Positions 1 to 3,174 of a DNA stretch of 3,174 bases are shown here, one piece after another. The stretch lies in the NCBI RefSeq assembly GCF_024298765.1, contig NZ_CP101217.1; one strand, 5' to 3'. The notes below the pieces were generated by a model. That model did no database searches and was not told where the DNA came from. It saw nothing but the letters and a program-made list of their open reading frames with translations. Origin of the DNA: Escherichia coli (GTDB lineage: Bacteria > Pseudomonadota > Gammaproteobacteria > Enterobacterales > Enterobacteriaceae). Both the position numbers and the translations under genes were made by a program. Each line of letters starts with the position of its first letter. Position 1 is the first letter of the stretch.

Positions 1-164
1 CGACGCGCCCCGTGATCGATGGCCTTGGCTCCGTCCGGCATATCGAGAGCGGCAAACTACCCGTCCCTTCACTGGGAGGGGTGAGTTGTTGCCGTTCCCT
101 CCGACCTTCCACCATCCAGCATATCGCACGATCCCATGAGCACCGCAACAACTGATAACTCCAG

Positions 165-266
165 AGCAAAAAAAAAAAAAGGATCTGCATCATGTGAGAG
201 TGATCCCACCGCTCGCCGCAGCCCCAGCGACCGAACGTAGTGAGCGAGTGGGCGAGGAAGCGGAAG
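165..266 (+). other. ColE1/pMB1-like origin-proximal segment (A13 tract plus conserved downstream block)
   Basis: A13 homopolymer at 168-180. Block 208-266 ACCGCTCGCCGCAGCC...GTGAGCGAG...GCGAGGAAGCGGAAG closely resembles the pBR322/pUC segment ACCGCTCGCCGCAGCCGAACGACCGAGCGCAGCGAGTCAGTGAGCGAGGAAGCGGAAG (recalled), which lies just downstream of the ColE1-type replication origin on the RNAII-sense strand, in the region of the primosome assembly sites. Confidence 0.35.
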
Positions 267-379
267 TGAACCGGAAACCACATTGAGCACGTACGCACCT
301 ATGCCAGATCCGCGCGTAGCGCGTCGCGAAATCGAAAACATTGAACACCGGCAGGCAAACGCACCACCACGCAGCGGAA

Positions 380-775
380 TTAATGATGATCTGGGCTTGT
401 TTCAAGATCGAGCCTGATTGCCTTAAGTTTCTGTAATATATTGTCTTTTGGGTATCTCAGTTCGCCTGTTTTTGTGTCCACTAGTCCGGCCTCGATCAGT
501 AACCCCGCCGCAAGAAACAGGCGGTGATTGCGTTCCCGTCGTTGTGTTTTCCCCTCCATCCGTTTTTGGTTGGCCTGTTTGCGTGCGTTCTCCTGTGCCT
601 GTAGCTCGTTTTTTTCTGCGGTTGCCAGGACGTGGAGTAGTTTGCGCTCCTGTTCTGTTAGTCCGGCTTCGTTATCGAGCAGGTCAATGATCTGCCTCTG
701 TCGTGCGGTCTGTTCTCCGAGCTTCCTGATAAAGCCGATTCGTTTCTTCAACCAGTCGATGTTGCTGATGCGCAT
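380..775 (-). CDS. mobC: MobC-like relaxosome accessory protein (131 aa)
   Basis: Minus-strand ORF, ATG at 775-773, stop TAA (complement of 380-382). AGGGAG Shine-Dalgarno on the minus strand about 10 nt upstream of the ATG. Divergent from the relaxase gene across the oriT region, as in IncQ mobC-oriT-mobA. The motif KTQRRERNHRLFLAAGLLIEAGL resembles the RSF1010 MobC motif as recalled (ERKNETRRKVLVGAMILAKV). The six-frame track extends the ORF to a GTG at 895 (171 aa), which would run through the oriT palindrome; the ATG at 775 with its RBS is preferred. Confidence 0.7.
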   Translation of the reverse strand: MRISNIDWLKKRIGFIRKLGEQTARQRQIIDLLDNEAGLTEQERKLLHVLATAEKNELQAQENARKQANQKRMEGKTQRRERNHRLFLAAGLLIEAGLVDTKTGELRYPKDNILQKLKAIRLDLETSPDHH

Positions 776-799
776 GTTTGGGATGCTCCCTGGTGTTTT

Positions 800-850
800 T
801 TGCGGTGTGTTGGGGTTGTGCAGTATATCGCTTGCGGTGGGTGGGTGCAG
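800..850. repeat. GT-rich direct repeats TTGCGGTG-N-GTGCAG (two copies) in the mobC-mobA intergenic region
   Basis: TTGCGGTG at 800-807 and 832-839, each followed by GTGCAG (818-823 and 845-850), 32-bp period. The plus strand here is strongly G+T skewed. Lies between the mobC start (775) and oriT. Confidence 0.4.
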
Positions 851-882
851 GGGGGTATCTTCCGTGCTAATTCGTAAAATTA

Positions 883-940
883 GCAGGAAGCGCACTTATA
901 TGTTTCTTCGCCGTTGGCTCAGAAACATGTGCGCTCCTGC
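883..940. other. oriT: origin of transfer (oriT), MOBQ/RSF1010-like, with candidate nic sites
   Basis: Inner inverted repeat ATGTTTCT (900-907) / AGAAACAT (921-928), with GCC/GGC pairing inside the spacer; compare RSF1010 arms CCAGTTTCTC/GAGAAACCGG (recalled). Outer imperfect inverted repeat GCAGGAAGCGCAC (883-895) / GTGCGCTCCTGC (929-940). Minus strand reads AGAAACAT-ATAAGTGCG|CTTCC (plus coordinates 898-886), matching the RSF1010 nic core TAAGTGCG|CCCT 8 of 8. Plus strand reads AGAAACAT-GTGCG|CTCCTGC (929-940), a shorter match. An additional small hairpin TGCTAATT/AATTAGCA lies at 865-885. Confidence 0.7.
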
Positions 941-954
941 GGAGGGCTAACACC

Positions 955-1908
955 GTGGCAACCTATCACCTCAATGTAAAATTTGGCGGCAAGGGACAGG
1001 CCGGAAACCATGCCGATTACATCGAACGCAAAGGCGAGTACGAGAAACGAAAAGATCTGGAATACTCAGAGCACGGGAATATGCCAGGCTGGGCGCGAGA
1101 TAATCCCTCCCATTTCTGGCAAGCGGCTGATCAGTTTGAACGTGCGAATGGTTCGACTTATCGGGAGATCGAAATCGCCTTGCCGCGTGAACTGACACCG
1201 GATCAGCGCATTGAACTGGTGCAGGATTTTGTGCGTCAGGTAGCTGGAGAACGGCACGCCTATAGCTTTGCCATTCACAATCCAAAAGCGAGCATTGACG
1301 GAGGGGAACAGCCTCATGCGCATATCATGATGAGCCAGCGTATTAACGATGGTATGGAACGTTCGCCGGAACAGTATTTCCGGCGTTATAACGCCAAGAA
1401 TCCCGAACGGGGAGGCGCAAAAAAAGATTCAGGCAATCTGACACCGACTCAGCAAAAAGAGCAATTGCGGACGTTACGGGCGAGCTGGTCAGCGTTACAG
1501 AACGAGCATTTAGCGCGTCATGGTCACAGGGTGCGCGTTGACCATCGCTCACTGGAAGAACGCGGAATTAAACGCACGCCAGAACGGCATTTCGGATTTG
1601 CCGCCTCATCACGGCTTGATCATGCGCAGCGCCGCGAAATCCTGCAAAACCGAGCGCAGCCGCTCGAACATTTTCTAGAGAAAGCGCATTCGGTTCGCCA
1701 TCAATTTGATGCACAAGTTCAGCAAAAAGAGTTAGTTAAAACGCTTTTACAGGACGTCGCACGGGAGCGAGGGCACGCGCTTACGGCAAGAATAAATAAA
1801 ACAGGTGAAGTTGAATTTGAACGTGCGCCAACGCGGACGCGGAGTAACACGCGAGGGCACGGCATGGGCATTCGTGACAACTCACGCGGGTACGACTACG
1901 AACGTTAA
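955..1908 (+). CDS. mobA: MobA relaxase, MOBQ family (317 aa, relaxase domain only)
   Basis: GTG start at 955 preceded by GGAGGG (941-946, 8-nt spacer); stop TAA 1906-1908. N-terminus MATYHLNVKF...HADYIERKGEY parallels RSF1010 MobA MAIYHL...ADYIQREGKY (recalled). Conserved motifs: ADYI (candidate catalytic Tyr22), REIEIALP, the His cluster H108...PH121AH123IMMSQRIND (candidate metal-binding triad), RYNAKNPERGGAKK, and VDHRSLEERGIKR. Confidence 0.9.
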   Translation: MATYHLNVKFGGKGQAGNHADYIERKGEYEKRKDLEYSEHGNMPGWARDNPSHFWQAADQFERANGSTYREIEIALPRELTPDQRIELVQDFVRQVAGERHAYSFAIHNPKASIDGGEQPHAHIMMSQRINDGMERSPEQYFRRYNAKNPERGGAKKDSGNLTPTQQKEQLRTLRASWSALQNEHLARHGHRVRVDHRSLEERGIKRTPERHFGFAASSRLDHAQRREILQNRAQPLEHFLEKAHSVRHQFDAQVQQKELVKTLLQDVARERGHALTARINKTGEVEFERAPTRTRSNTRGHGMGIRDNSRGYDYER

Positions 1909-1919
1909 AAGGGGACTGT

Positions 1920-2450
1920 ATGGCGAGTACAGAAGAGGGGTTGCTCACGCTCTTGTTGTCCGTTGAGCATTTGAAAAACACTGCGATAGAACAACAGAAA
2001 GCGGTTGCAGACACGCTGGCGGTCGCAAGGGAAACACTGCGGGGGTATCGGGATATTTCTGACAGTGTTGTAAAACAGGTTAGCGATGAAGTCAGAAAAG
2101 GGGTACAGAAAACGGACATTGCGGGGCTGATGGGTGAGCGCATGACCCAGGATTTTCAGCGTCTTGAAGAGACTGTGGCAAAGATGAGAGCCAACGCGGA
2201 GGCGCTTAACAAGGACATTGCGACAATTCATCACAATGTTGTTAAAGAATACAACACGCTCAATAAATACAGTCTGAAATGGTTTATCGGTGTTACGGTC
2301 AGTTTTCTGGTCATGTTCTCGTTGCTTGGCTGGTTTACCAAAACGTTGATCGACAGGAACTACACCGCGACGGAGGTCGTGTATCAGAAAATTGTTGATA
2401 TTGAAAAGAAACTGGACAAACCAGCAACAGGGAAGAGCCGGAAAAACTGA
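1920..2450 (+). CDS. mobilization-associated membrane protein, possibly MobB-like (176 aa; coiled-coil N-terminus, single C-terminal TM helix)
   Basis: ATG at 1920 lies 11 nt after the mobA stop, with AGGGGA RBS-like sequence at 1908-1913 (GGGGA centred about 8 nt upstream), implying operon coupling. Residues ~1-118 are charged and heptad-like (E/K/Q/A-rich). Hydrophobic segment WFIGVTVSFLVMFSLLGWF (aa 121-139, nt 2280-2336) is followed by a short basic tail. The antisense 200-aa ORF (1905-2507) has junk-like composition. Functional assignment is by position and by analogy with the membrane-associated MobB of IncQ plasmids, not by recognised sequence identity. Confidence 0.7.
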   Translation: MASTEEGLLTLLLSVEHLKNTAIEQQKAVADTLAVARETLRGYRDISDSVVKQVSDEVRKGVQKTDIAGLMGERMTQDFQRLEETVAKMRANAEALNKDIATIHHNVVKEYNTLNKYSLKWFIGVTVSFLVMFSLLGWFTKTLIDRNYTATEVVYQKIVDIEKKLDKPATGKSRKN

Positions 2451-2475
2451 CGCGCTTCGCTTGTCCAACGCCTCA

Positions 2476-2502
2476 CGGGACGCGAAAAAATTCCGCGTCC
2501 CG
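2476..2502 (+). terminator. candidate hairpin terminator downstream of the mobA operon
   Basis: 9-bp GC-rich stem CGGGACGCG (2476-2484) / CGCGTCCCG (2494-2502) with a 9-nt A-rich loop, 26 nt after the ORF stop. The downstream T-tract is interrupted (TTCACCGTTTTCT), so intrinsic-terminator assignment is weak; it could instead be a structured single-strand site. Confidence 0.35.
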
Positions 2503-2703
2503 TTCACCGTTTTCTGATGAGAAAGTTTGCCGTTTTGACCCGTTCGGTGCTCAGATTTGGCGAAATTGATTCCGAATCACTTTTGTGAATAGTTATGCAA
2601 GCCCCTGGAAACGTTTCTGACGCGTTTTTTGAGGTAGGGGTGGGGGAAAGCATGGTTTTTTGATGTTTTGAGCGTAAAAGCGTGAAAAATCGCGTTATTG
2701 TGC

Positions 2704-2732
2704 TTGCGATCTTTCGTCAGGGAGCGTAGAAC
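2704..2732 (+). promoter_or_regulatory. candidate sigma70 promoter for a plus-strand primer-like transcript (RNAII analogue)
   Basis: TTGCGA (2704-2709), 17-nt spacer, TAGAAC (2727-2732). It sits immediately upstream of an A-run plus hairpin (2734-2757), similar to how the ColE1 RNAII 5' end overlaps the RNAI terminator. Hexamers are only 4 of 6 matches to consensus. Confidence 0.2.
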
Positions 2733-2733
2733 G

Positions 2734-2757
2734 AAAAAAGCCCGCCGTTAGGCGAGC
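2734..2757 (-). terminator. rho-independent terminator, minus strand
   Basis: Minus-strand RNA would read GCUCGCC-UAAC-GGCGGGC followed by UUUUUU. 7-bp stem with one G-U wobble, which is a C-A mismatch in the plus-strand transcript, so the structure is strand-specific. The U6 tract corresponds to plus A2734-2739. Confidence 0.5.
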
Positions 2758-2860
2758 TTCTTCGGGTTCATTGAGGTTTTCGACCTCCTCAATGTTCCTG
2801 TGGAGTCTGTTGCGGCGACAACGGAAACCAGTTCATTCAGTTTGCATGAACCTTCTGTAT
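2734..2860 (-). ncRNA. candidate antisense regulatory RNA (RNAI-like), boundaries approximate
   Basis: Upstream of the minus-strand terminator (on that strand) are two more hairpins: CATTGAGG/CCTCAATG (2769-2794, 8-bp stem) and GTTCAT/ATGAAC (2831-2851, 6-bp stem). Three stem-loops ending in a terminator within ~120 nt resembles ColE1-type RNAI architecture. No confident promoter found; the 5' end is not defined. Overlapping ORFs in this region look non-coding. Confidence 0.25.
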
Positions 2861-3174
2861 TCTTCAAGCATTACCGACCGCACAGCCTCCCCAGAATCCC
2901 GAAAAAATCCTGTTTTTGCAGATGATTGCGTGTTTGCAAAGACCGTTTGCGGTTGGGGGAGCTGTGACGACGGCAACCGCACGCGTGAGAGTTCCGCTAC
3001 CGGCGCAGAGAGTTTCATCGACAGCGGACACCTGATGAGTTGCCACAAAAACCGTATGTAGCGCGGCTAGATTGGTTGAGTTAGACCTTGGCGGCAGTTC
3101 CCGGTATGTGGTGGCGTGACGGGTGAGATGGTGCGGCGAAGACGCATACGTCACGCAGGCGCGGGTTCTTCCAC

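Follow-up and report, generated by a model that had tools for sequence, protein, structure and literature searches.

Several described systems bear directly on the locus analysed here. pCE10B is the reference plasmid of MOBQ12, abundant cryptic E. coli plasmids (~5.2 kb; PMC4270462), and for pSC101-like plasmids the genes traD, mobA and mobX have been described (PMC10376468), the pSC101 MobA being grouped with RSF1010 in an IncQ-type relaxase family (PMC4981023). The catalytic residues of the R1162 relaxase (Y25, E74/E76 and H112/H120/H122) were listed by Garcillán-Barcia et al. in 2019, and in the MOBQ4 relaxases the motif positions are Y25, E87/E89 and H125/H133/H135, with a C-terminal domain that has SogL primase-like similarity (both PMC6856555). 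As for transport, a review places conjugative translocation signals of R1162 MobA at residues 204-323 and 322-387, and assigns a VirB/D4 signal to the C-terminal 48 residues of RSF1010 MobA (PMC10025392).

A relaxase nicks its plasmid, which a helper plasmid can then transport to another cell. Descriptions of pSC101/MOBQ12-type relaxases that lack a primase date from 2000-2014 onwards, and a further one is of little importance beyond its correct annotation. The MobA of pSC101 was reportedly characterised by Meyer in 2000 (cited in PMC6856555), and Parker and Meyer are said, going by the title of their 2007 paper, to have linked a requirement for MobB to the translocation signals of R1162 MobA.

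Here we analysed a mobA gene on a stretch of DNA of 3174 bp (hereafter the window), which is a complete circular plasmid. A preliminary description had presented this gene as encoding a minimal MOBQ relaxase made up of the relaxase domain only. Our analysis leads us to conclude, with a probability of about 0.9, that mobA encodes the functional relaxase of a mobilisation module of three genes and of the pSC101/MOBQ12 type, carried by a 3.17-kb cryptic ColE1-like plasmid.

A mobilisable plasmid shared by four genera

The window plasmid was found to be 100% identical to both Citrobacter werkmanii pLHC5-1-3k (NZ_CP084293.1) and Salmonella pTB508, and at least 99% identical to ~15 others, 3.12-3.18 kb in size, that come from Salmonella, Shigella and E. 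coli, so that at this level of identity it spans four genera (Citrobacter, Salmonella, Shigella and E. coli). The full-length mobA allele is rare: of 5426 complete E. coli genomes, 11 carry it at 99% identity or more. Partial matches to the mobA family at 80-90% identity were present in 418 complete E. coli genomes (~8%), always on plasmids. PLSDB and MOB-suite call the plasmid mobilizable, with a MOBQ relaxase and no replicon type given, and a literature search found no experiment on this plasmid or its mobA allele. The protein, the plasmid and its MOBQ typing are thus already in RefSeq and PLSDB, and the relaxase is of a catalogued, ordinary kind. The features to which we refer below are as follows (coordinates in the window, strand, description and basis).

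380..775, minus: mobC/traD-like relaxosome accessory gene, 131 aa, divergent from mobA (similarity to TraD; RefSeq hypothetical protein WP_001222910.1)
880..942, minus: oriT, R1162-type (inverted repeats, alignment of loci, single-stranded DNA fold)
941..946, plus: Shine-Dalgarno sequence GGAGGG of mobA, 8 nt upstream of the start (direct reading)
955..1908, plus: mobA, 317-aa MOBQ relaxase with GTG start (ORF, Pfam, structure matches; RefSeq "MobA/MobL family protein" of 317 aa, WP_001360358.1, identical to the ORF)
955..1596, plus: relaxase (HUH-type transesterase) core, residues 1-214 (46% identity to IncQ1 MobA residues 1-209; 2NS6)
1018-1020, plus: codon of catalytic Tyr22
1165-1173, plus: codons of Glu71/Glu73, acidic motif
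1276-1278, plus: codon of His108
1315-1317, plus: codon of His121
1321-1323, plus: codon of His123
1597..1908, plus: C-terminal region of MobA, residues 215-317 (alignment, AlphaFold2 model, end motif)
1920..2450, plus: 176-aa coiled-coil protein with one transmembrane helix at residues ~122-140 (RefSeq hypothetical protein; follows mobA throughout the family)
2836->2731, minus: RNA I candidate of a ColE1-like replicon (sub-threshold Rfam match, fold)

MobA has an intact MOBQ relaxase core

The coordinates, the length of 317 residues and the GTG start given for mobA in the preliminary description were all correct, and RefSeq uses the same start. The reading frame is closed upstream by a stop codon at 868, which makes the GTG at 955 the earliest possible start beyond it, while the next candidate, an ATG at codon 43, would remove the catalytic Tyr22. 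Moreover, M1, A2, Y4 and H5 were invariant in an alignment of 22 sequences and the homologues start in the same register, with either GTG or ATG, which upholds GTG 955.

The Pfam MobA_MobL profile (PF03389) matched residues 21-218 with 128 bits (E 6e-37), well above its gathering cut-off of 26.7; with the narrower NCBIfam models MobA scored below the trusted cut-offs (MobQ, 91 versus 200 bits; TraA_Ti, 106 versus 590). The best solved relative by sequence was the minimal MobA of R1162 (2NS6, E 4e-41, residues 2-191), followed by the staphylococcal NES (4HT4). An AlphaFold2 model derived from the same alignment of 22 sequences was confident at residues ~5-200 (block pLDDT mostly 80-95), and when compared with the PDB in Foldseek it again superposed best on 2NS6 (target-normalised TM 0.89, rmsd 2.4 Å, 44% identity), with NES 4HT4 and then the TrwC/TraI relaxases ranking next.

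The catalytic Tyr22 in ADYI and the cluster of H108, H121 and H123 had been proposed from the letters alone, and both proved to lie in the right positions: Y22 aligns with ADY(25)I of 2NS6 (motif I), and E71/E73 together with H108/H121/H123 align with E74/E76 and H112/H120/H122 of R1162 (motifs II and III). All six residues were invariant in the 22 homologues. The three checks suggested in the preliminary description (profile search, structural superposition on R1162 MobA, alignment of the start with homologues) thus all turned out positive. These data establish that the product of 955..1908 is a MOBQ relaxase.

Absence of a primase is a trait of the clade

No primase family was matched in MobA by Pfam, and BLASTP similarity to the 709-aa IncQ1 MobA (46% identity over residues 1-214) stops at residue 214, so the primase domain is indeed absent, as had been claimed. 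In a database of 5.8 billion proteins, most of the 120 best homologues were 300-375 aa long and none approached IncQ1 MobA in length (709 aa); PF03389 was the sole recurring domain among their precomputed Pfam assignments. The homologues form two length groups, one of 303-317 aa, which includes the pCE10B MobA, and one of 355-375 aa, which is the pSC101 type; the protein cluster of MobA itself holds 284 sequences. Since nearly all close relatives are without a primase, the finding is an ordinary one: the primase-less state is normal among them, and the fused primase of the IncQ plasmids is the exception in the clade.

The same protein, WP_001360358.1, also occurs on Col156-typed plasmids of 3.9 kb with a replication initiation protein of their own, where the mobilisation cassette is 98% identical over window positions 209..2629, and primase-less MobA proteins with 63-67% identity occur on other plasmids encoding a replication initiation protein. 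Identical and related MobA proteins on Rep-encoding plasmids mean that the absence of the primase is a clade trait, and not an adaptation of the window plasmid; the cassette is portable and independent of its carrier's replication mode. Of the suggestion that a primase-less MobA fits a plasmid relying on RNA or host priming, therefore, the description of the replicon stands, as it is probably ColE1-like and RNA-primed, but the causal link does not, given the identical MobA on the Col156-typed Rep plasmids.

The C-terminal region of MobA ends in a conserved motif

With the R1162 minimal relaxase domain taken as ~186 aa, the designation of MobA as minimal, or as a relaxase domain only, cannot be maintained, as ~100 residues follow the core and carry both conserved features and a C-terminal end motif. 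Within residues 215-317 the family conserves R220, Q225, R233, D267 and an ELV..L..D[IV] helix, and AlphaFold2 predicts helices within 223-271, then a small hairpin (276-290) and, at 292-317, a disordered tail rich in Arg, all with low confidence. The basic tail RTRSNTRGHGMGIRDNSRGYDYER is present as originally described, residues 290-317 containing seven K+R and three D+E.

The linkers ahead of the end barely align between sub-groups, and yet the last residues keep a motif across them: DKGWSFSR, SRGFSMGF, SRGFSISR, DKGFDMER and TRGYDRGR, with SRGYDYER in the window. It can be written [RK]-G-aromatic-[SD]-x-x-[RFW]-COOH and stands at the extreme C-terminus of primase-less relaxases of the MOBQ1 clade. 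In the window allele it is part of two tandem 11-aa units, RSNTRGHGMGI and RDNSRGYDYER. A sequence resembling the end motif also lies near the C-terminus of RSF1010 MobA (…RGMDRGGPDFSM).

Residues 215-317 are positionally equivalent to the R1162 MobA signal at 204-323 and are Arg-rich at their end, and on these grounds we propose that they may serve as a translocation signal or a docking site for the coupling protein, recruiting the relaxase-DNA complex to the helper. One may go further and suppose that the end motif acts as a C-terminal signal, so far undescribed, by which the coupling protein or T4SS of the helper recognises MobA, a conjecture that we advance tentatively and give about one chance in five of being right; if true, mosaic replacement of the 3' half of mobA and tandem duplication of the motif would re-tune which helpers mobilise the allele.

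An R1162-type oriT and two accessory genes flank mobA

The oriT lies between the divergent mobA and mobC/traD-like genes. Read on the minus strand, it consists of the inverted repeat GTTTCT-loop-AGAAAC, then ATA, then TAAGTGCG|C, and the core GTTTCT…AGAAAC-NNN-TAAGTGCGC is invariant, spacing included, among the window, IncQ1, pSC101-like and pCE10B-type (MOBQ12) plasmids and a fifth relative. The IncQ1 plasmid used here was found with a 38-nt R1162 oriT, which 121 records match at 99% or more; on it the conserved oriT strand runs toward mobC and away from mobA, the same orientation as in the window. By analogy with R1162, and with the GpC at which IncQ-type relaxases cleave (PMC4981023), the nick is predicted between window positions 891 and 890 of the minus strand.

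An outer arm pair, GCGCAC/GTGCGC, extends the oriT hairpin of the window and is missing from the R1162 oriT. As single-stranded DNA, the 63-nt oriT region folds into one long hairpin (z = -7). The outer arm would, however, pair with the nick core in single-stranded DNA, a point against our reading of mobA as the relaxase gene of a functional module. The plus strand carries GTGCGC after the repeat as well, at a spacing that is shorter and varies among relatives.

The 131-aa protein encoded on the far side of oriT shares 39% identity (E 4e-13) with the PGAP-annotated 'TraD' of a pSC101-like module, which bears the Pfam TraD domain (PF06412), and BLASTP found no alignment between it and RSF1010 MobC. 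Neither this protein nor the 176-aa protein gave a meaningful direct match in Pfam or NCBIfam, and a homologue search with the latter recovered "hypothetical proteins" of one narrow family and nothing else. To MobX the 176-aa protein is only marginally similar (BLASTP E 0.014; around the transmembrane segment, an hhalign probability of 41%). Homology of the 176-aa protein to MobB was considered and rejected, as BLASTP gave no alignment and an hhalign comparison of its family with IncQ MobB (PF17511) a probability of 1%. What it has in common with MobB and MobX is a helical N-terminal part, a W-K, one transmembrane helix and the position of the gene, and from this position and architecture it is possibly a MobX/MobB analogue. 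We also rejected a gene overlapping mobA, as mobB does in RSF1010, since the other frames contain open stretches of 45-118 codons and none has a position conserved among the homologues examined. A scan for consensus promoters and terminators gave counts equal to those of shuffled sequence.

A probable ColE1-like replicon and a mosaic module

The plasmid encodes no primase or Rep gene. On the rotated record the Rfam RNAI model aligned over its full length with 20 bits, below its gathering threshold of 47, and on the window as given Rfam yielded no match at E <= 1. When folded, the candidate RNA I (2836->2731) forms three stem-loops with a terminator at the end (z = -3.5), and RNA II would run on the plus strand across the window ends to an A13 run plus GGATC at ~165-190 (168-185), which resembles the ColE1 origin. 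The ~0.75-kb non-coding replicon recurs at ~92% identity in plasmids of 3.37 kb in which nothing else looks like a replicon; these bear Rop and ColE1-type mbeB/mbeD/mobC genes (MOBP5 mbe) and no annotated MobA/MobL. At ~75% identity it accounts for the greater part of certain plasmids of 1.1-1.5 kb. The replicon is probably ColE1-like and primed by RNA. Current typing (MOB-suite; the Rfam threshold) leaves it unrecognised.

A 3138-bp Shigella sonnei plasmid is 100% identical to the window from 2741 through the origin to ~841, with an identical mobC-like protein; beyond this stretch the two plasmids diverge, mobA being 72-90% identical over its 5' half and 47-67% over its 3' half, and the 176-aa gene 58-97%. 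There is a breakpoint near oriT. A breakpoint exactly at the nick was considered and is unsupported, as differences from the S. sonnei plasmid are sporadic at 842-884 and heavy after 907.

Alternative explanations

One could argue that the primase was specifically lost, or dispensed with, since the plasmid uses RNA or host priming, and that a 'minimal' relaxase was thereby adapted to its replicon. The ColE1-like replicon, the lack of any primase or Rep gene on the plasmid and the RepB primase domain fused to IncQ1 MobA are all in keeping with this. Nevertheless, we consider such an adaptation improbable: the identical WP_001360358.1 resides on 3.9-kb Col156-typed plasmids with a replication initiation protein and its 63-67% identical counterparts on other Rep-encoding plasmids, the 120 best homologues are mostly 300-375 aa long, with none near 709 and with PF03389 as their sole recurring precomputed domain, and a protein with ~100 residues beyond its core is not minimal.

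That the ORF is instead a truncated or decaying, non-functional remnant, the plasmid spreading only vertically or through an oriT acted on in trans, we hold to be highly unlikely. It is true that MobA is shorter than its IncQ counterpart, that its last third shows little conservation and is modelled at low confidence, and that the full-length allele (at least 99% identity) is rare, with 11 occurrences in 5426 complete E. coli genomes; yet all catalytic residues are intact and invariant, which counts against decay, the length class is common to hundreds of relatives, the end motif of the clade is kept at the extreme C-terminus, the plasmid is at least 99% identical across four genera, and the module is intact on two different replicons. 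Hardly credible at all is the idea that this HUH enzyme doubles as, or simply is, the rolling-circle replication initiator of a Rep-less plasmid. Relaxases and rolling-circle Rep proteins do share the HUH fold, no Rep is encoded and MOB-suite gives no replicon type, but the plasmid has its ~0.75-kb non-coding ColE1-like replicon, whose ~75% identical relatives occur in plasmids of 1.1-1.5 kb, too small for a 317-aa MobA, and whose ~92% identical relatives accompany Rop and MOBP5 mbe genes with no annotated MobA/MobL, and the best structural and sequence matches of the protein are conjugative relaxases.

Proposed mechanism and significance

Taking mobA as the functional relaxase gene of its module, we propose that MobA and the divergently encoded TraD/MobC-like protein would bind the R1162-type oriT in the intergenic region, where Tyr22, aided by a metal ion held by His108, His121 and His123, would attack the minus strand at 5'-TAAGTGCG|C-3' (891|890), leaving MobA covalently joined to the 5' end. 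The C-terminal ~100 residues, with their Arg-rich tail and end motif, may then bring the nucleoprotein into contact with the coupling protein and T4SS of a co-resident conjugative helper, probably assisted by the downstream 176-aa membrane protein. The strand would be transferred 5'->3', the mobC side and the replicon entering first and mobA last, and MobA would re-ligate it at the regenerated oriT. The plasmid supplies no primase of its own; priming by the host, together with the RNA II primer, would have to serve for complementary-strand synthesis and establishment in the recipient, a mode of priming that we infer, as we do the dependence on a helper.

The window presents a tidy and complete three-gene mobilisation cassette that has moved between ColE1-like replicons and Col156-typed replicons with their own initiator. 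Only three leads are new, and modestly so: an end motif that is conserved and here duplicated, an oriT lengthened by a palindrome, and a replicon of ColE1-like type that escapes the typing tools. The end motif and the 176-aa membrane protein offer cheap targets for studying how hitch-hiking plasmids choose their helpers.

Comparison with known systems

The MOBQ4 plasmids (pIGWZ12, ColE9-J; PMC6856555) are likewise small mobilisable plasmids of enterobacteria; their oriT lies between mobA and a divergent mobC, and their relaxase has a 2NS6-like domain. Assignment of the window MobA to MOBQ4 was nonetheless rejected, as the motif positions differ, the MOBQ4 C-terminus is primase-like and identity is low; plasmids that are likely of the MOBQ4 type (~4.1 kb, annotated 'MobQ family relaxase') encode proteins only ~25-30% identical to it. 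MOBQ4 is a different subfamily.

The window resembles RSF1010/R1162 (IncQ1, MOBQ11) in the fold of MobA, in its catalytic residues (the Tyr, two Glu and three His), in the core and spacing of oriT, and in having a divergent mobC. In contrast, IncQ MobA is a 709-aa protein to which a RepB primase is fused and whose gene overlaps mobB, the window MobA having no such fusion, and IncQ MobC and MobB have no detectable sequence similarity to the accessory proteins of the window.

The pSC101-type MobA is closer, at 63% identity over residues 1-235, and neither protein has a primase. Both loci have a divergent traD-like gene, an R1162-like oriT and a downstream protein with a coiled coil and a transmembrane segment, one pSC101-like plasmid being annotated traD - mobA - mobX. 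They differ in that the pSC101-type MobA is 355-375 aa long, with a different linker and the ending DKGWSFSR, whereas that of the window has 317 aa and ends in SRGYDYER.

Closest of all is pCE10B, whose MobA (WP_001331297.1, 308 aa) is 66.7% identical over 97% of the window MobA and shares with it the GTG start and the lack of a primase. The gene order is the same in the two (a mobC-like gene of 131/132 aa, oriT, mobA and a membrane protein of 176/177 aa), as is the oriT core. The mobA genes diverge sharply after about residue 170 (47-67% DNA identity), the window MobA is longer at its C-terminus by 11 residues, which duplicate the end motif, and the replicon of the window is ColE1-like whereas that of pCE10B depends on a replication initiation protein. 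With its identity of 66.7% and its identical synteny with pCE10B, the window relaxase, whose C-terminal half is mosaic, is a candidate member of MOBQ12.

Mosaic structure of the plasmid

On sequence comparison, the plasmid is a mosaic. We compared it with the 3138-bp Shigella sonnei plasmid NZ_CP151308.1.

~841..2440 and 2501..2700, stretches concerned in the comparison

The replicon and the mobC-like gene were 100% identical between the two plasmids, while divergence set in abruptly near oriT and was strongest in the 3' half of mobA, where DNA identity was 47-67%. A cassette comprising positions 209..2629 was also found, at 98% identity, on 3.9-kb Col156-typed plasmids, which encode a replication initiation protein.

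The replicon

2630..3174 + 1..210, replicon, apparently ColE1-like, spanning the window ends
2731..2836, minus strand, RNA I candidate, an antisense RNA with three stem-loops
168..180, homopolymer of 13 A at the presumed origin

Judged from its sequence, namely the three-stem-loop antisense RNA and a 92%-identical region in Rop-carrying plasmids, the replicon looks ColE1-like. The RNA I candidate scored only 20 bits against the Rfam RNAI model (cut-off 47), and MOB-suite assigned the plasmid no replicon type. Smaller plasmids (1146-1541 bp) consist mostly of this replicon region, at ~75% identity. Homopolymer runs such as the A13 tract may be a source of the length spread (3171-3175 bp) seen among near-identical plasmids.

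The MobA tail and the downstream gene

1840..1905, two tandem 11-residue units, RSNTRGHGMGI and RDNSRGYDYER (MobA residues 296-317)
1920..2450, plus strand, gene for a 176-aa protein; its N-terminal part is helical, and it has a single transmembrane helix and a Y-S-W/L-K-W motif that is conserved
~2476..2506, perfect GC-rich hairpin (cacgggacgcg / cgcgtcccgt around aaaaaatt), directly 3' of the 176-aa gene

Each of the two units in the C-terminal tail of MobA resembles an end motif, [RK]-G-aromatic-x-x-x-[RFW], that ends the protein chain in other relaxases of its clade that lack a primase; to each other, the units are ~52% identical in DNA (hand count). Within its family, the gene for the 176-aa protein always comes next after mobA. 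Its product is annotated only as hypothetical and matched no Pfam family, and its architecture recalls those of the pSC101-type MobX and the IncQ protein MobB. The hairpin that follows, which did not appear in the output of a consensus terminator scan, probably serves as a bidirectional terminator between the mob operon and the replicon.

The oriT palindrome

886..935, both strands, extended oriT palindrome, an R1162-like inner repeat with an outer GCGCAC/GTGCGC arm

The outer arm places a nick-core-like GTGCGC on each of the two strands. As single-stranded DNA, oriT is predicted to fold into a 63-nt hairpin (z = -7), whose outer arm would be base-paired to the site where nicking is predicted. 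This arm is likewise present in MOBQ12 and pSC101-like relatives, whereas the oriT of IncQ1 plasmids lacks it.
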